Origin: a virus
Lineage: Duplodnaviria > Caudoviricetes
DNA length: 64,000 bases
Reading direction: 5' to 3' (one strand)
IMG/VR virus record: IMGVR_UViG_3300023194_000002
Coordinates: 20,210-84,209 of that record
Shown: positions 1 to 23,453 of the stretch, piece by piece
Position numbering within the stretch: the stretch's first letter is position 1
How the letters are laid out: each line of letters opens with the position of its first letter
Made by a program: the position numbers and the translations under genes
The notes under the pieces: model-generated
The model's input: the letters and a program-made list of their open reading frames with translations, nothing else
The model's database searches: none
What the model was told of the DNA's origin: nothing

Positions 1-52
1 GTTTCGGCTCGCGCTGGCTTCTGATGTACGCAGAAACCGGGACGGTGCTGAC

Positions 53-874
53 ATGAGCACCGATCTCTGGTTGCGCAAGATCAAGCTGCAGGTCGAGGGG
101 TTACTGTTAGAGGACTACCATGTCCGGTTCAATGTCGCGTTGAGCGACAACCCGAAGACAAGCAACACGGCGACGATCCAAATCTCCAACTTAGGCGAGC
201 ATCACCGCCATCAGTTGGAGCGCATGAAGAAGGTCTACGTGGACCTCTATGCTGGATACGAGACCAGCATGCCGCTGCTGTTTCGCGGGGATTTATACAC
301 AGTATTCTCCGAGCATTCCGGCGCCACATGGACCACGACGATCAGCGCCGACACATCACGTGTTGCGAAGAAGAAGCGCGTGGTCAAATCGTTCGCGCCC
401 GGCGCAAGCATTGGCGACATCTTCCAGCATCTCGCCAAAGAAATGGACCTCAAAATCAGCAGTGGGTCCATCAAGGTCGCGGAGGCCGCGATCAAAAAAT
501 CGCGCGCCCGACAGTTCTTCAACGGTTACTCGCTCGCTGGGACTACGCGCGATGAACTGGAGCGCCTGTGCAGATCGTGCGGGTTCGAGTGGCAGGCGCA
601 CAACGGCAAATTGCACCTGGTCCCACTGTCGAAAGCGTTGACCGACTCAGAGTTTGTTTTGAGCGCGAAAACGGGGCTCATCGGGCGGCCGAAAGTCGGC
701 AACTATGGCCTTATCGACGTGCAGTGTTTATTGATTCCCGACCTCTATCCCTACCGTCGGGTCTATCTAGACTCAGTCCAGATCAACGCTCCGTGCGTCA
801 TCAAGACTGCAAAACTCGCAGGAGACACGCGCTCGCAGCAGTGGGCCGCCAACCTAGAGCTAAAGCTGGAATGA
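53..874 (+). CDS. Baseplate hub-like protein
   Basis: 273 aa just upstream of spike, wedge and J genes; motifs (NTATIQISNL, LYAGY, LLFRGD, TGLIGRP) resemble myophage hub proteins. Confidence 0.6.
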   Translation: MSTDLWLRKIKLQVEGLLLEDYHVRFNVALSDNPKTSNTATIQISNLGEHHRHQLERMKKVYVDLYAGYETSMPLLFRGDLYTVFSEHSGATWTTTISADTSRVAKKKRVVKSFAPGASIGDIFQHLAKEMDLKISSGSIKVAEAAIKKSRARQFFNGYSLAGTTRDELERLCRSCGFEWQAHNGKLHLVPLSKALTDSEFVLSAKTGLIGRPKVGNYGLIDVQCLLIPDLYPYRRVYLDSVQINAPCVIKTAKLAGDTRSQQWAANLELKLE

Positions 875-2618: not shown

Positions 2619-3304
2619 ATAACGCACGTCCCGCAGCTTTTCCGGACTGGGCCAGCGACAGCACGGCTCAAGTCGTCCAGCCACCGACTGGTAAGCAGGA
2701 GGTCGGGTTCCTTCCTGGAGAGGAGGTTCCTGCCGGCTGGTACAATTGGATACTGAAGCTGATCAACAGTCAGCTCAAATATATCGATGAATCGGTCAAG
2801 ATCTCGACCGAGAAGATCGAACTGTCTTCAGGACAAGCCTGCTATCGGCATCAAACAGGCAAGCCATCGTTTGGGCAGGTCGGCACTGCGTTTACCGCGA
2901 GCACCGCAAAATACTACGGATATGCATGGGTCAGCGGGGGCTCGAGTTCAGCCGTGACCTTCCCTCTGCGCGTGCAGCCTGGGCGTCGCTTATTGAGCGT
3001 CGATCTCATCTGGTCGGCTCCGAACGAAACTGTCAGAAACAGCGCCAGCGTGTCGTCGGGACAGATCAACTGGTCGACGCTGCCATCGTCCACCGCGCTA
3101 TTGGGGGTAGGCGCAACCCTGGGCACTATCGTGCAGACGCAATTCAGTGGCGGAAATTCCCTCCTCTGGACGAAGAGTACGGTCAACGTCACGCAGCCGC
3201 AGCCCGCGTACTCCGAGACGCTGGAATATTGGCTAGATATCACGCTGGGCAGCACTGCGGAGTTCTGCGCGCTGCGCGCGATCCGTATCAACACGCAGGG
3301 GTGA
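2615..3304 (+). CDS. Putative tail/baseplate-associated structural protein
   Basis: N-terminal FPDWA...GFLPGEEVPAGWYNW motif typical of tail-fibre attachment regions; ATGA coupling to the spike gene. Confidence 0.5.
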   Translation: MNNARPAAFPDWASDSTAQVVQPPTGKQEVGFLPGEEVPAGWYNWILKLINSQLKYIDESVKISTEKIELSSGQACYRHQTGKPSFGQVGTAFTASTAKYYGYAWVSGGSSSAVTFPLRVQPGRRLLSVDLIWSAPNETVRNSASVSSGQINWSTLPSSTALLGVGATLGTIVQTQFSGGNSLLWTKSTVNVTQPQPAYSETLEYWLDITLGSTAEFCALRAIRINTQG

Positions 3305-3768: not shown

Positions 3769-4995
3769 GTGGCTGACTATGGGCTAACACCTGAGGGCAT
3801 AAATATTAGGACGTTTGCGGATATTCGCCGCGACGTCCTTGGTCGTCAGCGCGCGTGGATCCATGCCGGTTTTCAGGACTCCGCAAACGACGTCGTCGGG
3901 CAGATGAACGCCGCGGTTGCTGAGATTGCTGCGGAGATATGGGAGCTGATGCGGGCGATCGTTGAAACACGACACCCCGACGCGGTCACCGGCGCGTTGC
4001 AGGACGCGCTCTATGCGATTCAAGCGATCGTTCGTAAGGGCGACGCGGTAAGCACCGTGAATGCTCTGGTGACGCTGGATGCAGGCGCCAATATCGCGAT
4101 CGGTGATGCTGTAGCGAGCGTGAACGGCAATACGGATGCGCGCTTTGAGAACGCTGAGGCGATGGTGAATTCGTCGGCGAGCTCGAAGTCGGCCGTCATT
4201 AAATTCCAGGCGCTAACAGCCGGTCCCGTGGTCGCCAACGCAGGCACGCTCACAGTGCGGGAGACGCTGCCTACGGGATGGCAATCGATCACAAATCCCG
4301 GCGATGCGACGTTAGGTTTTTTCGCCGAGTCGAACGCAGCGTTTCGCGCGCGGCGCGAGCTGTCGATCATGCGTGGCTCGCGACACGTGAACGGCATCCG
4401 CGCTGAGTTACTGAACCTGAGCACGGTGCGCGACGCGCTTGTGCGCGAGAACATCACGAACTCGACCGACCCTGACACCGGCATGCCCCCGCATGCGATC
4501 AACGCAGTGCTTAACTCCAGTGCGAGCGATGATGCAGAACTTGCCGAAGTTATCAGCGAAACACGCGCTGCGGGCATTAAGTCGTGGGGCTCGACCACGG
4601 TCGCGGTGACAGACGAGGGTGGAACGCACAACGAGTCTTTCTCTCGACCCGTCAAAACGCTGTTATATCTCAACGTCCGAATATACGTCGGACCCGACTA
4701 TATAGGCGATGACGCACTCAAAGCGTTGTTGATCCAGTCGGCTGAGGATGCTTCGTCACCAGGATTCTTGCGCCTCGGAACGGATGTATTCGGCGGGCAA
4801 TTCGTCGTTGCGATGATGGCGTCGGGCACGGGCATCCGCACCGCAGAGGCGCGCATCTCGACGGCGTCGACCACGTTCGATCAGGCGCAGCAAGGGATCA
4901 TCGTCGCGCCGAGTGTCCAAATGGTGTTGGACGCGAATCGCATCACCATCACGCGCCTTGTCTATCAGGCGCCTGCAAATTGGAGTGACGTCTAA
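3769..4995 (+). CDS. Baseplate J-like protein
   Basis: MADYGLTPEG start, ATGALQD, GPVVANAGTLT, ESNAAFRARR, RAAGI motifs; 408 aa. Confidence 0.9.
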   Translation: MADYGLTPEGINIRTFADIRRDVLGRQRAWIHAGFQDSANDVVGQMNAAVAEIAAEIWELMRAIVETRHPDAVTGALQDALYAIQAIVRKGDAVSTVNALVTLDAGANIAIGDAVASVNGNTDARFENAEAMVNSSASSKSAVIKFQALTAGPVVANAGTLTVRETLPTGWQSITNPGDATLGFFAESNAAFRARRELSIMRGSRHVNGIRAELLNLSTVRDALVRENITNSTDPDTGMPPHAINAVLNSSASDDAELAEVISETRAAGIKSWGSTTVAVTDEGGTHNESFSRPVKTLLYLNVRIYVGPDYIGDDALKALLIQSAEDASSPGFLRLGTDVFGGQFVVAMMASGTGIRTAEARISTASTTFDQAQQGIIVAPSVQMVLDANRITITRLVYQAPANWSDV

Positions 4996-14074: not shown

Positions 14075-16251
14075 GGATTGAGCACAGGCCGTTGGTTCTT
14101 CTGCGCGGGATCCATGGGCCCGAGGATGCCCTCGCGCTCCAGCTGCATCAGTGCACGTTTGGCGCGTGGCTGGCCGATCGACATTTCGCACATCACTGCG
14201 CTGACAGACACCCAGCGTTGTCCTCGGACGTACGTCAGTAATCGATTGTGCAGCTCATCATCACTCAGCTGCACGGGCGCTGCTGGTGCAGCGGGCTCGG
14301 TTGTGGTGGGCGTCTCGATGACAGCCTGTTTACCGCTCTGCGCGCGCCATGCGGCGCATACGGCCTTCACCTCGTCCGGGCTGATATACGCGCTGTGCAC
14401 GCGCTGCCATTCGGTCGACCCAGGCAGCATGCAGAGGCTATCTCCACGACCGAGTAGCTTTTCGGCGCCGCGGATGTCCATGACGGTCTCGCTGTCTTTG
14501 CCGGATGACACCTTGTAGGTGATACGAGTGGAGAAGTTGGCTTTGATAATGCCAGTAACGACATCCACGCTCGGGCGCTGCGTTGCGAGTATGAGGTGCA
14601 TTCCGGCTGCGCGTCCCTCTGCGGCGATGCGTGAGATCAGCAGTTCAGCCTCTTTTGCCTGAGAGATGAATGACGCGAACTCATCGATCGCGATCACGAC
14701 GCGGTGATAGGGCGCATTGGACCGCGCGTTGTATTCAGCGATCTCCGACTCGCCGACTGCAGCCATGGTGGTGTAGCGGCGTTCCATCTCCTCGAGCGCC
14801 CATCGGAGCAATGCAATCCCGTCTGCAGACTGCACCGCGATCGGCGCGAGCAAATGAGGGATGCCAGCGTAGCGCGATAGCTCGACGCGTTTGGGGTCGA
14901 TCATCAAGATGCGCATCTCGCTAGGTTTGCGCGTGAGCAACAGTGCCGTGAGCCAGCAGTTGAGGCCGACGCTCTTGCCTGAACCGGTGGTGCCAGCGAC
15001 CAACAAGTGTGGAGCGCTGGCGAGATCGAGATACACGGGCGTGCGATCTGGAGCGAGGCCGAGCGGCATGGGGAGTGCGGCCGAGCGGCGAAGCGCGGTC
15101 CACTCGTCGCACTCCATCAGTTCACGCAGCATGACCGTCTGACGATCCTCCTCGTCGAGTGGGACCTCCATTAGGGTGACCTTCCCGCGCTGAGTTACGT
15201 TCACATGCAGCGTGTCGAGCGCCTGCGCGATCTCGGGCGCGAGCTTCTTGATCGTGCTGATTTTCGTTCCTGCAGGTGGCTCGTACTCGTAATACGCGAG
15301 CATCGGCCCCACGTCGCCGCCAGAGACCTGGCCGCCGATGATCTCGTGCTGGTAGAGCGCACGCGTGATCTTTTTGCGGCCGGCGTCGAGCGCGCGCTGC
15401 TTGCCTGCTTTTGTGCGCTCCTTCGGTGTTGCGAGGCGCCGAATGTCCGGGAGTACGTACACAACGGGAGCAGCGTTTGGCGCTGCAATTCCCGGTAAAT
15501 CCTGCTCATCGCTGTCCACCGAGGACTCGATGATGTCCGGACCGTTGTCCACGCTGTTGTCCGGCGCGTAGTCCCTCACATCAACGATGCGAGCACGCGG
15601 CGTCGGCAGCGGAGGGCGCTTCGACGGCGCCGGGTGTGACGCGGGCACCGACTCGCGCACAGTCTCTCCGTGCGTGTCGATCACGGCCTGAGGCGCGTAC
15701 ACACGGGGCCGTGCAGCAGCGGACGGAGCGGGTGCACGCGTAGACGCAGACAGCGCACGCGCAGCAGCAGCCTGACGCTCGATTTCACGAGCGCGAGTCC
15801 ATTCGGAGGCGAACCGACGGGCCATCGAGCCGACGCGCGCGCTCAGCTGCTGCGCATGCGCAGGGCCCATAGCGCGCCGCGCAATTGCCACCAGCACGAT
15901 GGCCAGCAGTACGTAGGCCCCGAGCCCGAAGCCGCGATGAAGCCCCCCGCCCACCATTGAGCCGACGTGCCCAGACGGCGCGCCCAGCAGATCGAGCGTC
16001 GCGGGCAGGCCCACGAGCGACAGGCTCCACCACACGCGCACGATGCCGGGGCTGCGCTGGCTGACAGTCCACCACGACTCCGCGGCGAGCCAGCCCACAC
16101 AGCACCATGTGGCCCAGCCGAATGACGATGATAGCCACGCAGCAAGGCCATCCCCTGCGCGACCGAGTAGGCCGGCCAGCGCTGAGGCGAGCAGCAGCGC
16201 TGTGCCGGCGTAGGTGATTGCGTCCTTGCTGCGGCGGGTCATGGGCGGCAC
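14071..16251 (-). CDS. ftsK: FtsK/SpoIIIE DNA translocase (TM domain, ATPase, C-terminal gamma domain)
   Basis: PHLLVAGTTGSGKS, MIDPKRVEL, IAIDEFA, LATQRPSVDV, GAEKLLGRGD; gamma-like C-terminus. Confidence 0.95.
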   Translation of the reverse strand: MPPMTRRSKDAITYAGTALLLASALAGLLGRAGDGLAAWLSSSFGWATWCCVGWLAAESWWTVSQRSPGIVRVWWSLSLVGLPATLDLLGAPSGHVGSMVGGGLHRGFGLGAYVLLAIVLVAIARRAMGPAHAQQLSARVGSMARRFASEWTRAREIERQAAAARALSASTRAPAPSAAARPRVYAPQAVIDTHGETVRESVPASHPAPSKRPPLPTPRARIVDVRDYAPDNSVDNGPDIIESSVDSDEQDLPGIAAPNAAPVVYVLPDIRRLATPKERTKAGKQRALDAGRKKITRALYQHEIIGGQVSGGDVGPMLAYYEYEPPAGTKISTIKKLAPEIAQALDTLHVNVTQRGKVTLMEVPLDEEDRQTVMLRELMECDEWTALRRSAALPMPLGLAPDRTPVYLDLASAPHLLVAGTTGSGKSVGLNCWLTALLLTRKPSEMRILMIDPKRVELSRYAGIPHLLAPIAVQSADGIALLRWALEEMERRYTTMAAVGESEIAEYNARSNAPYHRVVIAIDEFASFISQAKEAELLISRIAAEGRAAGMHLILATQRPSVDVVTGIIKANFSTRITYKVSSGKDSETVMDIRGAEKLLGRGDSLCMLPGSTEWQRVHSAYISPDEVKAVCAAWRAQSGKQAVIETPTTTEPAAPAAPVQLSDDELHNRLLTYVRGQRWVSVSAVMCEMSIGQPRAKRALMQLEREGILGPMDPAQKNQRPVLNP

Positions 16252-18702: not shown

Positions 18703-19130
18703 GCAGCGCTGAGCCGCGATTCCTGACGCTGGACGACGTGCTGCGTCTTCATACGTGGCAGCTAGAGCAGTACGGCGGAAGCGCCGGTGTGCGCGATCAG
18801 GGGCTGCTCGAAGCAGCGATCGCGCAGCCTCAGGCAGGCTTTGGCGGTGAATATCTGCACGCTGACATCTGGGAGATGGCCGCGGCATACCTGTTCCACA
18901 TCGTACAGAACCATCCCTTCATCGATGGAAACAAGCGCGCGGGCCTATACTCAGCGCTTGTGTTTCTGGACGTGAACAGGCACTCGCCAATCGGTTGGTC
19001 CAATGCCGAGATGTTCGCGCTCACCGTGCGCGTCGCATCTGGCGAACTCCACAAGCCTGGAGTCGCCGACGCATTTAGGCGCCTGGGGGTGCTTGAACGT
19101 CCCCCCCAGGTTCCTCTCCTCTGCCGATAA
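18699..19130 (+). CDS. doc: Fic/Doc toxin
   Basis: GVRDQGLLEAA and HPFIDGNKRAG Fic motif. Confidence 0.92.
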   Translation: MSSAEPRFLTLDDVLRLHTWQLEQYGGSAGVRDQGLLEAAIAQPQAGFGGEYLHADIWEMAAAYLFHIVQNHPFIDGNKRAGLYSALVFLDVNRHSPIGWSNAEMFALTVRVASGELHKPGVADAFRRLGVLERPPQVPLLCR

Positions 19131-19183
19131 TGTGTCTCAAACCCCGTTATAACGGGTTTGGAGACATCTTTCCGACGGAGGAG
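19114..19183. repeat. 70-bp imperfect palindrome, copy A
   Basis: CTCTCCTCTGCCGAT...GTGTCTC...TTTCCGACGGAGGAG; both terminal 15-mers are identical to 22400-22469. Confidence 0.85.
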
Positions 19184-19213
19184 GGGAATCGTGCCCGGGG
19201 GAGACGTGCCGGC

Positions 19214-20329
19214 CTACCGCCCGATGAGCACGCGGCGACGACGGGTCACGGGGTCCACCGTGCTCACCACGCCCGCGGCTTCCAGGCGAGCCACCAGGGG
19301 GTAGACACGGTCCCCCAGCATGAGCTTGCGCTCCAGCCAGGAGGGCGTGAACGCGTGCATCCCCTGGAGCAGCAGGATCGCCTTCGCGTACAGGGCATCA
19401 TCAGCCGCGGTGTAGGTGGGCGTCGACGGCGGAGACATCAGCAGGGGTAACTGCTGTGGGGTTGCCTGGTCAGCGGACGAGGCGAGCGCGGCTGGGGGAG
19501 TGGTTGCTACGGGGACCAGGGCAGGCACCGGTGCAGGGGCAGCCACCCTCTTCATCAGGGCATCCAGTTCATCGACCGACGCGATGCACCACTCGCGTGC
19601 ACCCTGTAGGGCAGCGATGCCAGTCGAGGTGGCCAGTAGGCGATGGCGGATGCGCTGGATGGACTCCACGTCCGGAGCAGGTGCGGGTGGGGTTGGTGGT
19701 GCAGGGGGTGCCGGTGCTCTGACCAGCACGCGGGAGAACGTGCCTCTGGGCGCCAACTCGACGATGCCGTCGCTGATGAGGCGGCGGAAGATGCGCTGTC
19801 CTCGGCCCGACCCAACGTGGAAGGTGCGCTTCAGCCACTCGCACGAGACCGTCTCTCGCGTCTTCACCACGGCCACGACCTGCTCGTAGAGGGGGTCGGA
19901 GGCGGGCGGAGTCGAAGCCCTGAGCGCCGGGGGAGTGGTGGGCTGGATGGCAGTGTTTGCGGACTGGGCGCGCAGGGCGCGCTTGATCACGTCTCGTGCC
20001 CAAGCGCGGAACGCATGCGCTTCCGGCGACTTCACGCGCCACATCACGTCGATCACGACGTCCGATGCGTAGTGCTTCGTGCGGTAGGCTTTGCCGTCCG
20101 CGGCAGTGCACAAGTATTCCTTGTGAACTGAATCCCAAGCACTTCCATACAGTTCTGAGATCGACCTCAGATGCAGAGCGATGTTCTGCTGTGTCGTACC
20201 GCTCATCTGGGCCATTTGGGCCTGGGTTGGCCAGAGCTCATCTGCCTCCCAGCGCACTGCCACCACGGCGCCGGTCTGCATGCTGTACTCGTACGTCACG
20301 ACTTCCGTGGTACCAATCGTCTCACTCAT
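19214..20329 (-). CDS. RhuM-like DNA-binding domain fused to two FtsK-gamma-like domains
   Basis: LWPTQAQMAQM...QNIALHL...TAADGKAYRTKHYASDVVIDVMWRVKS (RhuM); DPLYEQVVAVV...GIV and DALYAKAI...GVV. Confidence 0.8.
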   Translation of the reverse strand: MSETIGTTEVVTYEYSMQTGAVVAVRWEADELWPTQAQMAQMSGTTQQNIALHLRSISELYGSAWDSVHKEYLCTAADGKAYRTKHYASDVVIDVMWRVKSPEAHAFRAWARDVIKRALRAQSANTAIQPTTPPALRASTPPASDPLYEQVVAVVKTRETVSCEWLKRTFHVGSGRGQRIFRRLISDGIVELAPRGTFSRVLVRAPAPPAPPTPPAPAPDVESIQRIRHRLLATSTGIAALQGAREWCIASVDELDALMKRVAAPAPVPALVPVATTPPAALASSADQATPQQLPLLMSPPSTPTYTAADDALYAKAILLLQGMHAFTPSWLERKLMLGDRVYPLVARLEAAGVVSTVDPVTRRRRVLIGR

Positions 20330-20396
20330 AGGAGTTTCCTTCCTCGTGGGTCACGACCCGGGCGATGGCCGTCGCGCCGGGTCATTTCATACGAGC

Positions 20397-20456
20397 ACTT
20401 TTTCATACGTAAAAGTTACGCGCAATGAGGCGCGTGATTTTTACGTATGAAAAAGT
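20397..20456. promoter_or_regulatory. Perfect 18-bp inverted repeat (operator) in a divergent promoter region
   Basis: ACTTTTTCATACGTAAAA-N24-TTTTACGTATGAAAAAGT; extra TTTCATACG at 20385. Confidence 0.7.
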
Positions 20457-20499
20457 TACGCTGTTCGCTGTGGCTGCGAAGAAAAAGCCGACAAAGCGC

Positions 20500-20682
20500 A
20501 TGGGAAGGCCCGCCGTTCCAGACGATCAGCGTCTGACGGTGCAGATTGGCCTGAACATGACCCAATCCGACTGGGAACTGCTTGAGTCAACGGCTGAAGA
20601 GCGAGGCGTCCGTCCGGCTGAGCTACTGAGGCAGCTGATACGCGGGCTCACGAAGCAGAAGGCGGGCAGTCCCACCCGCTGA
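20500..20682 (+). CDS. Small RHH-like regulator
   Basis: MGRPAVP...VQIGLNMTQSDWELLESTAEERGVRPAELLRQLI; start may be GTG 20470. Confidence 0.65.
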   Translation: MGRPAVPDDQRLTVQIGLNMTQSDWELLESTAEERGVRPAELLRQLIRGLTKQKAGSPTR

Positions 20683-20793
20683 AAAATTCAGCCCGACGTC
20701 GAATTGATTGGCGCGGCTAGCAATAATTCCCTGATGGTCGCCCGGGTATTTTTACGCTCGTCGTGGAAACGGAACCGACGAACGAGGGAACCT

Positions 20794-20979
20794 ATGGCTT
20801 TGGTGAAATGCGGCGAATGCAAGGGGCAGATCAGCACAAACGCTAAAGCGTGTCCGCACTGCGGTTCGCGGCTCAGCCCAATCACGTCGAGCATGAACCG
20901 GTTGGGCTGGGACATGATGAAGCTCGCGGTTCTTCTGGTGCTGGGGTTTTTCGCGCTGATCGTGTTTGGTAAACGCTGA
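20794..20979 (+). CDS. Zinc-ribbon + TM small protein
   Basis: MALVKCGECKGQISTNAKACPHCG; GAGGGA RBS. Confidence 0.7.
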   Translation: MALVKCGECKGQISTNAKACPHCGSRLSPITSSMNRLGWDMMKLAVLLVLGFFALIVFGKR

Positions 20980-21124
20980 CCAGCGGTAGCCGTGCTGGCG
21001 CGGGGGAGAGGTCCTTCGCAGCACGCAACTATGCGTATTAGCCCGCCGCCGAGCGTGGCGTCACGCCGGCGGAAGTGATCCGCCAGTGTGTACGCGCACA
21101 GCTATCGCGCAGCTTCTAGCTCAC

Positions 21125-21388
21125 TCACCATTCATCCCGATCTTTTGGGCGCGTTATGAGCCCGTGCTCGAGCATGTGCTCGAACCACTCCTTGAAAGCG
21201 CGATGCGTATCCGCAAGCCTTTGAATCCCGGCGTTTAACTCAACCAGCTGCTCGATCAGAGCGACCTTCCAGTCCGCATCCAAACGCCTCTCGTATTCTG
21301 CGGCCTTGCTGGCGTCGCTTATCGCTTCCTGAACGTCAGCGAGCGTTTCCCGCAGACTTTCGAGTGGAATCTTCTCTTCATCCGACAT
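21125..21388 (-). CDS. Hypothetical coiled-coil protein
   Basis: 87 aa ORF from MSDEEK. Confidence 0.45.
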   Translation of the reverse strand: MSDEEKIPLESLRETLADVQEAISDASKAAEYERRLDADWKVALIEQLVELNAGIQRLADTHRAFKEWFEHMLEHGLITRPKDRDEW

Positions 21389-21487
21389 CCCGCCATGGTC
21401 ACGGATCAAGCGTGATCCGATCCATCGGTGGTTAGCTCGCATTTTCGCCGCCATATGAGGCCGCGGCACTAGGGAAGAGGTGGCAGG

Positions 21488-21522
21488 TTGCGAGCTACTA
21501 GCCACCTAGTACACTGCCGGGT
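21488..21522 (+). promoter_or_regulatory. sigma70-like promoter and operator of parDE (leaderless)
   Basis: TTGCGA-N16-TACACT with ATG 7 nt downstream; ACTAG-N4-CTAGT inverted repeat in the spacer. Confidence 0.5.
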
Positions 21523-21762
21523 ATGAGCCGCACCACCAGCTACACCCTGGGCCCCGACCTCGACACCTTCGTTCAGGAGCAGGTTGACAGCGGCGCATTC
21601 AAGTCGGCCAGCGAGGTTGTGCGCGCTGCTCTACGCGCCATGGCAGACGAGCAGCAGAAGGCCGCAGCGCTGCGCGCCGCGATCGACGAGGGCCTAGCCA
21701 GCCCGCTAGCAGAGCCAGGCACCTGGGCCAGGGTCCGGGCAGCTGCGCAGGCGAAGCGGTGA
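21523..21762 (+). CDS. parD: ParD-like antitoxin (RHH, CC2985-type)
   Basis: FVQEQVDSGAFKSASEVVRAALR...LRAAIDEGLAS. Confidence 0.9.
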   Translation: MSRTTSYTLGPDLDTFVQEQVDSGAFKSASEVVRAALRAMADEQQKAAALRAAIDEGLASPLAEPGTWARVRAAAQAKR

Positions 21763-22046
21763 ACGTCCGTTACACGCGTCGCGCAGAGGACGATCTCGTT
21801 GAGATCGGCGTCTACACGCTGATCGAGTGGGGGCCCGAGCAGCGCGACAAGTACCTCGATCTGCTCGAGGCAGCGTGTGAGCGCATCATTCCGCGCAACC
21901 TCAAGCACGCGCGTGACGTCCCTGGGTACGAGGGACTGCTGCGCTGGCGCTGCGAGCGACATGTGATCGTTTTCCGCCGCGTGTCAGACGGCATTGAAAT
22001 TGTGCGTGTGCTCCACGAGCGCATGCTGCCGTCCAAGCATCTATGA
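21759..22046 (+). CDS. parE: ParE toxin
   Basis: YTRRAEDDLVEIGVYTLIEWGPEQRDKYL...RHVIVFR...IEIVRVLHERM. Confidence 0.92.
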   Translation: MNVRYTRRAEDDLVEIGVYTLIEWGPEQRDKYLDLLEAACERIIPRNLKHARDVPGYEGLLRWRCERHVIVFRRVSDGIEIVRVLHERMLPSKHL

Positions 22047-22375
22047 GGAGACAGGCGCTCTATATGGTGGGAATGGACACTGAGAAGCCTTCAGTCTACG
22101 TCGTCGCGGCAATCGACTACGACGCGCGATGGACCATCGCCGTGTACACGACGTTAGCCGCGGCCGAGCAGCACCAGGCCGAGGCTGAACGGCTCGTGAG
22201 CGAGCTGGCCGAGCTCCGAGGTCGTGGCATTGACACGGTCGAAAGCCTGGAACTCCTACCCAGGGTCAAGAGCGTCCTGAATAGACCATGGGACCCGGGC
22301 ACGCCGTCCATCGAGATCGATGAGATGGAGTTGCGCGATGCGGTGCCGTGGTCGGAGCAACCAGCCGGCGAGTGA
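22043..22375 (+). CDS. Hypothetical protein
   Basis: Overlaps the parE stop; VYVVAAIDYD...AVYTT motif. Confidence 0.5.
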   Translation: MRRQALYMVGMDTEKPSVYVVAAIDYDARWTIAVYTTLAAAEQHQAEAERLVSELAELRGRGIDTVESLELLPRVKSVLNRPWDPGTPSIEIDEMELRDAVPWSEQPAGE

Positions 22376-22399
22376 GACCCGCATCTCTCCCCTCCTCCA

Positions 22400-22469
22400 C
22401 TCTCCTCTGCCGATTAAGTGTCTCTAGAGCCGTTCTGGTGGGGGTTGAAACACATTTCCGACGGAGGAG
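22400..22469. repeat. 70-bp imperfect palindrome, copy B
   Basis: Same length, same orientation and same terminal 15-mers as 19114-19183. Confidence 0.85.
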
Positions 22470-22527
22470 ACGTGGCGCTGAGCAGGGGGAGACGAAAAAA
22501 TATTGCTGGCGCGCGCCAGCTGTGAGA

Positions 22528-22631
22528 TTTATTCGTCTTGCTTGCGCGGCCCCATTGAGGCGTTTCGAACCGCTACCCGCATCCGCGCAAATTTGCAGTC
22601 ATCCGCAGTTCAGCTGCGGCCCCATTGAGAC
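22528..22631 (+). CRISPR. Mini CRISPR-like array: degenerate repeat - about 36-nt spacer - intact repeat, type I-G-like
   Basis: GCGGCCCCATTGAG repeated at 22546 and 22616 (70-nt period); repeat 2 GTCATCCGCAGTTCAGCTGCGGCCCCATTGAGAC has a perfect CCGCAG/CTGCGG stem; 22/34 identity between repeats; no cas genes in the window. Confidence 0.65.
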
Positions 22632-22644
22632 ACGCTAAATTGAC

Positions 22645-22674
22645 AAAGCCCGCTCAACTTTGAGCGGGCTTTTT
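22645..22674. terminator. Bidirectional intrinsic terminator
   Basis: AAAGCCCGCTCA-ACTT-TGAGCGGGCTTTTT between the mini-array and a convergent minus-strand operon. Confidence 0.9.
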
Positions 22675-22685
22675 GCGTTATGGGG

Positions 22686-23453
22686 TCACTGGGATCTCCC
22701 TCCGTACCACATCAGCGGAGGTGGTCTCGTCGGCCGGCGAGTGTCGACCCAGCGCCGCCCGATCAGATGCAGCGCTAGGTGGATGCGCCACTCGCCGCGG
22801 TGCTCCAGGGTCAGCGTGAGCGGCCTCTGCGCGTGCACCACCTCGACGCCCGCGAGCACCAGCCCGGCCCGATCAAGCGTCTCCGCGGTATAGCGCTCGA
22901 TGTACGCGCGCTCCGTCGGCGTGGTCTCGCGTGACTCGCCGGGTCTGATCTCAGCCAACGGCTCCGGGCCGAGTTCGACGGGCCACAGCACCATCAGCTC
23001 GATGCCGCCGACGCGATCGGCCTCCTTTGCCTGACGTCGTGAGAGCGTCAGGGGCTGCATAATCTGCGCCCGCACTGGTGCCCGCACAGCCGGCGGTGCG
23101 TCGTCATCCGCCGGCCAAAGCCTATCTGCGAGCGTACGAGCGGTCGCGAGATCTCCACCGCGCACCGCGTCCACCAGCTCCATCACGATGTGCTGGTGGC
23201 GCGCTGCGCTCTGCGCTGCTGACTCAGACTGCGTCGCCTGGCCGCACGCATGGCAGCGTCGCAGGCCTTCGCTACGCGGTCGACCACGTGGCTGACCGGT
23301 GATGCGCGCAGGTCGCAGTGCGGCGTAGACCGTGCTGCGTGGGTGGCCCTCATCGATGCGAGCGCGTATCCACGCAGCGCGGTCTGCGCGCGACATGTGA
23401 GCGACCCCGTCGCGTTTGGCGAGGTCGCGGAGTGATGTCGGTGGTGAGGTCAT
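22686..23453 (-). CDS. Hypothetical protein
   Basis: 255 aa ORF ending at the terminator; ATGA-coupled to the upstream ORF. Confidence 0.5.
   Translation of the reverse strand: MTSPPTSLRDLAKRDGVAHMSRADRAAWIRARIDEGHPRSTVYAALRPARITGQPRGRPRSEGLRRCHACGQATQSESAAQSAARHQHIVMELVDAVRGGDLATARTLADRLWPADDDAPPAVRAPVRAQIMQPLTLSRRQAKEADRVGGIELMVLWPVELGPEPLAEIRPGESRETTPTERAYIERYTAETLDRAGLVLAGVEVVHAQRPLTLTLEHRGEWRIHLALHLIGRRWVDTRRPTRPPPLMWYGGRSQ

Follow-up and report, generated by a model that had tools for sequence, protein, structure and literature searches.

Type I-G is among the least studied of the type I CRISPR-Cas systems. Its Csb2 protein binds the repeat hairpin and remains attached to it at the 3' end after cutting 4 nt past the stem, which leaves 8 nt as the 5' handle; TTN serves as the PAM (10.1101/2022.08.08.503147). 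In type I systems, pairing of a guide with its target over the PAM-proximal part only gives binding without Cas3 cutting, a mode described for CreR and CreA (PMC9458426) and for the viral Cracr RNAs (10.1101/2024.10.29.618823). The same sources give the layout of these RNAs: a degenerate first repeat that keeps its handle and a better-kept second repeat in CreA and crlRNAs (PMC9458426), and the order repeat-like segment, spacer-like segment, terminator in a viral crlRNA (10.1101/2024.10.29.618823). Cracrs are reported for types V-A, I-F, I-E, I-C and I-B, not for I-G (10.1101/2024.10.29.618823), and the functional tests of Racr RNAs covered types I-C, I-E, I-F and V-A, not I-G (PMC10651486). 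In the literature searched, we found neither tests of RNA-based viral counter-measures nor a crRNA-like regulator for type I-G.

The unit described here is carried by an 84,209-bp IMG/VR virus record that has direct terminal repeats and is 100% complete by CheckV. The window, i.e., the whole stretch of DNA that was analysed, is 64,000 nt long and corresponds to bases 20210-84209 of that record. The unit lies at a convergent gene junction, where plus-strand genes end upstream and face a minus-strand gene (255 aa) whose end lies at 22686. It is marked by an exact 14-nt direct repeat, GCGGCCCCATTGAG, at 22546 and 22616 (a spacing of 70 nt), and no further repeat copy beyond the two described below, R1 and R2, occurs in the 84-kb genome. 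The same unit is found in L068, a 7.8-kb metagenomic contig, in the intergenic DNA past a homologue of the 255-aa gene that is 71% identical. The features of the region, in window coordinates, are:

21523-21762, plus strand: ParD, upstream of the unit
21759-22046, plus strand: ParE, upstream of the unit
22043-22375, plus strand: orphan ORF (ORF110), upstream of the unit
22505-22520, no strand assigned: 16-bp palindrome, phage-specific, outside the conserved unit, terminator-like on the minus strand
22526-22540, plus strand: degenerate 5' part of R1 with a T-rich motif, GATTTATTC, in common with L068; homology to L068 starts here
22528-22561, plus strand: first repeat copy, R1; only its 3' 20 nt are shared with the repeat; no hairpin; ends ATTGAGGC
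22541-22553, plus strand: conserved leader segment CTTGCGCGG and CCCC linker, a 3' stem strand without its usual 5' partner
22554-22561, plus strand: predicted 8-nt 5' handle, ATTGAGGC, identical in L068 (host consensus ATTGAAGC)
22562-22597, plus strand: spacer-like or guide segment, 36 nt
22562-22578, plus strand: variable, AT-rich PAM-proximal part of the guide, 17 nt, 47% identical to L068 (there at 4329-4344, minus strand)
22579-22597, plus strand: conserved PAM-distal part of the guide, 19 nt, which resembles the 5' half of the repeat and pairs with the leader
22598-22631, plus strand: second repeat, R2, intact, 34 nt, an I-G-like hairpin repeat
22645-22677, both directions: intrinsic terminator; its 13-bp arms (22645-22657 with 22660-22672) pair perfectly, and a T-run follows on the plus strand
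22686-23453, minus strand: ORF255, 255 aa, the convergent neighbour and the sole gene linked to the unit in both phages

The R2 hairpin consists of a 6-bp stem, CCGCAG/CTGCGG (22603-22608 with 22614-22619), and a 5-nt loop (22609-22613), followed by the linker CCCC (22620-22623) and the handle ATTGAGAC (22624-22631); from the published processing rule, the Csb2 cut is predicted between 22623 and 22624. The terminator starts 13 nt past R2 and separates the unit from ORF255. A sequence-only reading of this DNA had described an A/T stretch, a palindrome, two repeats, a 36-nt spacer and a terminator belonging to the unit, and we recovered each of these, position for position. It had also taken the A/T stretch and the palindrome for the unit's own leader, and that part has to be dropped, because L068 has neither the A-rich stretch nor the 16-bp palindrome, and the stop codon of its upstream gene abuts the unit. 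The T-rich motif at 22526-22540 could mark where an upstream transcription unit ends or could act as a -10-like promoter element; no promoter was found in either phage by a sigma-70 consensus scan. Immediately upstream, twin hairpin-forming elements of ~110 nt in direct orientation (window 19095-19207 and 22381-22494) have their ends in common and a mean column identity of 81% (MAFFT); the second copy ends ~30 nt before the unit, and the A-rich stretch begins right after it.

Two spaced copies of the 15-nt repeat core were found in 63 stretches when one genome per prokaryotic species was scanned. These come from many phyla and taxa, including Planctomycetota, Nitrospirota, Acidobacteriota, Myxococcota and Alicyclobacillus, and nearly all are plainly CRISPR arrays. 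The host repeats are 36-37 nt long and run stem, loop, stem, CCCC, ATTGAAGC, with an array period of 71-74, so that the 36-nt guide of the phage has the length of a host spacer. In 4/4 arrays inspected, cas genes adjoin the array (Cas8g/Csx17, Csb1/Cas7g, Csb2 or Cas4g/Cas1g). A covariance model built from 37 distinct host I-G repeats and applied to a search space of 129 kb scores R2 at 28.9 bits (E = 2.2e-5) and each first copy at ~12 bits; the R2 copy of L068, which was not used in picking the training set, has E = 0.046. Based on the R2 score, the resemblance of the repeat elements to the host family is far beyond chance. Among database repeats, the Rfam family CRISPR-DR16 (RF01330) aligns R2 end to end with 17.5 bits, below its gathering score of 35. 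R2 has the GC-rich stem, 4-nt linker and 8-nt handle of an I-G repeat, at a length of 34 nt rather than 36-37. From these sequence comparisons, we assign the repeats of the unit to the type I-G family, as had been proposed from the letters alone.

The handles of the phage repeats depart from those of the hosts: they end in GAGGC and GAGAC, versus GAAGC or GAAAC in host repeats. Both deviate at position 6, which is invariant across the 37 aligned host repeats, and none of 55 distinct host repeats has the GAGAC ending. The R2 handle agrees with ATTGAAGC at 6/8 positions and with the GAAAC variant at 7/8. The altered handles singled out by the sequence-only reading are thus real, and they recur in L068.

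The phage itself is Cas-less, as had been claimed: no match to Csb2, Cas7g or Cas8g was found in the complete 84-kb genome, by a search that does detect Csb2 in host genomes. The adjacent cas genes and multi-repeat array of a type I-G CRISPR-Cas locus are accordingly missing from the unit. The closest host repeats at the 5' end come from two metagenome-assembled genomes, L056 (Phycisphaerales) and L023 (Phycisphaerae), which are one base off outside the loop; this likeness may be taken as a weak hint to the host. The L023 genome carries, at 951-1068, an orphan unit of the same architecture as in the phage, with a 35-nt spacer between a 5'-degenerate repeat and an intact one; the intact one equals the L056 array repeat except for the first base. 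Other routes to the host gave little. The best terminase matches, from Methanoculleus and Rhizobium phages, are 47% identical and uninformative on the host; ~890 spacers from the 63 array stretches gave no match to the phage beyond 15-19 nt; and no related phage in GenBank was matched when 3.5 kb surrounding the unit were used as a blastn query.

The flank of the unit is a cargo hot spot, in which window 21019-22525 and L068 4385-6427 hold unrelated genes beside the unit: ParD/ParE and the orphan ORF here, and, in L068, Uma2, an 87-aa ORF and a toxin-antitoxin-like pair of Gp49 and an HTH protein. On the far side of the hot spot (window 19816-21019), the two phages are 87-97% identical. We found no relatives of ORF110, which is unrelated to the gene upstream of the unit in L068. 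Neither Pfam nor PHROG nor structure gave a lead for ORF255, which is one of a small family of proteins with a conserved C-terminal domain of ~120 aa and the motif RVGGIELM..WP..LGPEP. In contigs L069 and L070, a strong hairpin followed by GGCCTCATTG (~47-96, minus strand) lies directly upstream of a distant homologue of this domain; the hairpin resembles an I-G repeat and is not picked up by the host-repeat covariance model. Elsewhere in the window, ARAGORN calls a 91-nt tRNA-Val (anticodon AAC) at 15550-15640 within a long-ORF region, which may be a false call.

The exact unit is known from two sequences, this phage and L068. The sequencing runs listed for this DNA comprise one DNA run, from a subsurface metagenome and with a small share of it, and no RNA run. 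A third copy (22541-22631) in contigs of that DNA run is very probably the same phage as L068 and was not counted as independent, and no other IMG/VR carriers of the exact unit were found with three different patterns. Between the two sequences, blocks of 89-100% and ~46% identity alternate within 110 nt. The leader strand and first handle (22541-22562) are identical at 22/22 positions, the first 16-17 nt of the guide are 47% identical, the last 19-20 nt of the guide with the start of R2 (22579-22605) match at 25/28 positions, the hairpin interior is 45% identical, and the end of R2 with its handle matches at 15/15. For comparison, the neighbouring gene is 74% identical and the upstream DNA is unrelated. 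The R2 stem shows one compensatory change in L068, C-G to G-C, and the terminator shows three compensatory pair changes. The guide is 36 nt and R2 is 34 nt in both phages, the guide length being held by two offsetting indels. The compensatory changes and the constant lengths of guide and repeat indicate that selection acts on the unit as a plus-strand RNA whose geometry is fixed, and the odd handles, GAGGC and GAGAC, are conserved rather than decayed. Neutral drift would likewise produce a variable seed were that part of the guide functionless.

This pattern bears directly on the idea that the phage acquired a piece of a host array, of which the unit is now a non-functional relic, or that the unit is a DNA-level element of another kind, for example a protein operator or a cluster of terminators. 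The position of the unit at the edge of the cargo hot spot, with mosaic flanks, would suit such an origin, as would the degeneracy of R1 and the small palindromes in the guide (TTCGAA and the 10-bp GCAAATTTGC). However, the alternation of strongly and weakly conserved blocks next to a gene of intermediate identity, the compensatory changes in RNA stems and the preserved guide length all argue against it, and we consider it very improbable. In particular, the 14-nt repeat, whose being a protein operator was one of the findings that the sequence-only reading had said would overturn it, sits in sequence that matches the I-G family end to end, and so is more than an operator half-site.

Our preferred reading, which we put forward tentatively, is that the unit, a one-guide degenerate mini-array, encodes a crRNA-like RNA of the phage that works with the I-G Cas proteins of the host and probably serves as a partial-match repressor guide. 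In more general terms, the unit probably hijacks or blunts host CRISPR proteins, and tricks of this kind are already known for other CRISPR types. We infer the following course of events. The unit would be transcribed from the plus strand, ending at the terminator. Host Csb2 would bind the R2 hairpin and cut 4 nt past the stem, which would set the 3' end, and R1 would contribute nothing but the 8-nt 5' handle. The resulting RNA of ~70 nt (handle, 36-nt guide and hairpin), predicted to start at AUUGAGGC and to end after the R2 stem, CUGCGGCCCC, would be loaded into host I-G Cascade. Its guide would then pair with a target at the PAM-proximal end only, giving binding and no Cas3 cutting.

Three features point to processing and loading in the manner of a crRNA: the first handle is conserved, the length of the guide is constant at 36 nt, and the hairpin is intact and covaries. 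The broader proposal, already voiced in the sequence-only reading, that such an RNA would borrow the I-G Cas proteins of the host fits the conservation pattern in the second phage. Since the two phages differ over the first 16-17 nt of the guide and keep the last 19-20 nt fixed, target pairing is probably confined to the PAM-proximal end; a guide with a varying PAM-proximal part and a fixed PAM-distal part cannot match two different targets over its full length. Among the roles that had been listed for the RNA (targeting of a rival phage, repression, decoy), the data on this ground favour, rather than prove, a partial-match guide, for which no target was found. The guide seeds are AT-rich in a genome of ~63% G+C, and AT-rich seeds suit promoter DNA, which is only suggestive. 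Several points count against the guide reading: R1 has no hairpin of the kind that Csb2 needs, which bears on where the 5' handle would come from; neither guide has a target in the searches described next; the consensus scan gave no promoter; and both handles deviate at position 6.

We searched for targets in several collections. The phage genome contains no target of the guide, in agreement with the failure of the sequence-only reading to find a protospacer in the window by eye. The best self-match (25/36, genome position 1321, in a 491-aa ORF before a MuF-like gene) is attributable to chance, with a PAM of GAA, four seed mismatches and no codon-level agreement. Neither guide has an exact 18-mer in IMG/VR, and these collection scans, which used exact 18-mers only, are blind to mismatched matches. 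An exact copy of the first 20 nt of the guide, L067:6059-6078, lies within a bacterial TPR-CHAT gene on a metagenome contig; its PAM is TGC, the match does not extend further, and ~1 such match is expected by chance on a rough estimate of collection size. No outlier guide match was found in 452 kb of host I-G loci, and guide matches in 401 Phycisphaerae genomes stayed at background level. Two pattern matches in Phycisphaerae were set aside, one in a genome without Csb2 and the other inside a long ORF; a reversed-pattern control gave more matches. The comparison of the spacer with phages and host cas loci, of the kind that the sequence-only reading had proposed as a check, thus yielded one 20-nt match at chance level and no credible target.

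Another alternative is the classical viral mini-array, in which an interference-competent crRNA would direct the host I-G system to destroy a competing phage or plasmid (superinfection exclusion). Two host-like repeats around a 36-nt spacer in a Cas-less virus are the layout of such an array, Medvedeva et al. 2019 (PMC6858448) provide a precedent, and among the I-G two-repeat units of other IMG/VR phages, entire spacers have been exchanged between close relatives. However, no protospacer was found in IMG/VR by exact 18-mers, and the lone metagenome match, 20 nt in the TPR-CHAT gene with its TGC PAM, is at about chance level. A shared PAM-distal stretch of 19 nt next to a differing seed fits neither one inherited spacer nor two independent acquisitions. 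In addition, R1 is without the 5' half that, by analogy with other type I repeats (PMC9458426), would carry the adaptation and Cas6-binding motifs. We therefore regard an interference-competent mini-array as improbable.

The main rival of the repressor guide is a Racr-like RNA anti-CRISPR decoy, in which the intact repeat and the structured RNA upstream of it would sequester Csb2 and Cas7g in dead-end complexes and the apparent guide would be targetless. Several observations would agree with a decoy: (i) The R2 hairpin has been kept through a compensatory change, with the terminator close behind. (ii) Both handles are altered at a position that is invariant in the hosts, which could spoil proper assembly. 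(iii) The seed evolves at a roughly neutral rate, and no target was found. (iv) Viral I-G solitary repeat units are listed as Racr candidates in the PMC10651486 supplement; the R2 sequence was not found in the part of it that was searched. However, the unit is not a solitary repeat, as a second handle-bearing copy lies exactly 70 nt upstream of R2 in both phages, and a decoy would not need an identical first handle, an exact 36-nt spacing maintained through offsetting indels, or a conserved PAM-distal half. On the whole we think a decoy somewhat unlikely; the classical mini-array and the relic are less likely than either the repressor guide or the decoy.

Returning to the repressor guide, the missing hairpin of R1 may have a counterpart within the guide itself. 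Within the guide, 22583-22590 is a perfect complement of the octamer that precedes the first CCCC (22542-22549), and the probability of an 8-bp leader match within a 36-nt segment is ~4e-4 by chance. This leader-guide stem of 8 bp is predicted in both phages, and L068 can form a ninth pair, as read from its sequence. Because the conserved 3' half of the guide looks like the 5' half of the repeat, R1 and the 3' half of the guide together make up a split, or permuted, repeat. Such an arrangement could have been left by a deletion that joined two ancestral repeats, or it could stand in functionally for the missing hairpin. In its boldest form, the latter would amount to a novel design of viral guide RNA: the hairpin strand that R1 lacks would be supplied from the guide, the permuted Csb2 substrate would free the 5' handle from a short primary transcript, the PAM-distal half would be fixed, and the RNA would bind partially matched targets only, never with Cas3, as a mimic of CreR-like I-G autoregulators. 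We consider this full design rather unlikely.

A looser pattern recovered 38 IMG/VR contigs with I-G repeat pairs, most of which have two or three repeats. Among the viral units, a recurrent two-repeat family comprises 12 contigs (L082, L083, L085, L087, L089, L090, L091, L096, L097, L098, L110 and L117), to which L112 may be added. Its members have two unlike repeats, the second of which ends ATTGAGAC like R2 in the window; the 36-nt guides are swapped between relatives, the downstream flanks are 92-96% identical and the upstream flank is variable. The guides of L083 and L097 diverge over the first 13 nt only and are identical over the remaining 23, a pattern that counts in favour of the repressor-guide reading of the phage unit. 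In several other viral I-G units the first repeat is also without a hairpin.

On the host side, a degenerate two-repeat unit lies near the start of an I-G cas operon in a Phycisphaerales genome assembled from a metagenome (L077, ~3130-3290, minus strand). Its guide agrees at 13/15 pairing positions with a TTT-flanked, AT-rich site ~280 nt upstream of cas7g (L077:4076-4096), and this site ranks first among the matches in 452 kb of host I-G loci. From this match, the L077 unit is a candidate CreR-like autoregulator of type I-G, of which we found no description in the literature searched. Together, the viral I-G two-repeat families and the host candidate in L077 suggest that CreR-like regulators exist for type I-G and that guide-mimic RNAs extend to this type. 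The phage unit offers a concrete, conserved I-G candidate with clear anatomy and a natural second allele that has a different seed, and it is a compact scaffold for asking how Csb2 and I-G Cascade choose RNAs.

Set against known systems, the unit resembles host I-G arrays, such as those of L056 (Phycisphaerales) and Thioalkalivibrio sulfidiphilus (10.1101/2022.08.08.503147), in the order of stem, 4-nt linker and 8-nt handle and in its 36-nt spacer, and the non-loop positions of R2 match the L056 array repeat bar one base. It differs from them in having two repeat copies only, no cas genes and the handles GAGGC and GAGAC, and its R2 has a shorter loop and a length of 34 nt instead of 36-37. Like the viral mini-arrays of Medvedeva et al. 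2019 (PMC6858448), which place one or two spacers between host-like repeats, it has no cas genes; unlike them, it gave no match to related viruses in the searches above, its repeats are unlike each other with the first truncated, and its guide is only partly variable between relatives. With the Racrs of Camara-Wilpert et al. 2023 (PMC10651486) it shares the character of a phage-borne repeat-hairpin mimic with a terminator and no cas genes, whereas a Racr is a solitary repeat and this unit has two repeats and a length-conserved 36-nt guide.

The closest correspondence is with the Cracr RNAs (Liu et al., 10.1101/2024.10.29.618823) and with the host crlRNAs CreR and CreA (PMC9458426; 10.1101/2023.03.10.532045): degenerate repeats surround one spacer-like segment, followed by a rho-independent terminator. 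As in Cracrs and crlRNAs, the locus is viral, lies on a mobile element and is Cas-less, the first repeat keeps mainly its handle, and the PAM-proximal part of the guide is variable. Unlike CreR, CreA and Cracr RNAs, this unit gave no matching host CreR/CreA or promoter target. Pairing of the leader with the 3' half of the guide is a feature of this unit that we did not find in the descriptions consulted of Cracr, CreR or CreA RNAs. Viral mini-arrays, Racrs and Cracrs are all already known, and the leader-guide stem is the one unusual feature that sets the unit apart from them, a feature that would raise its interest if functional.
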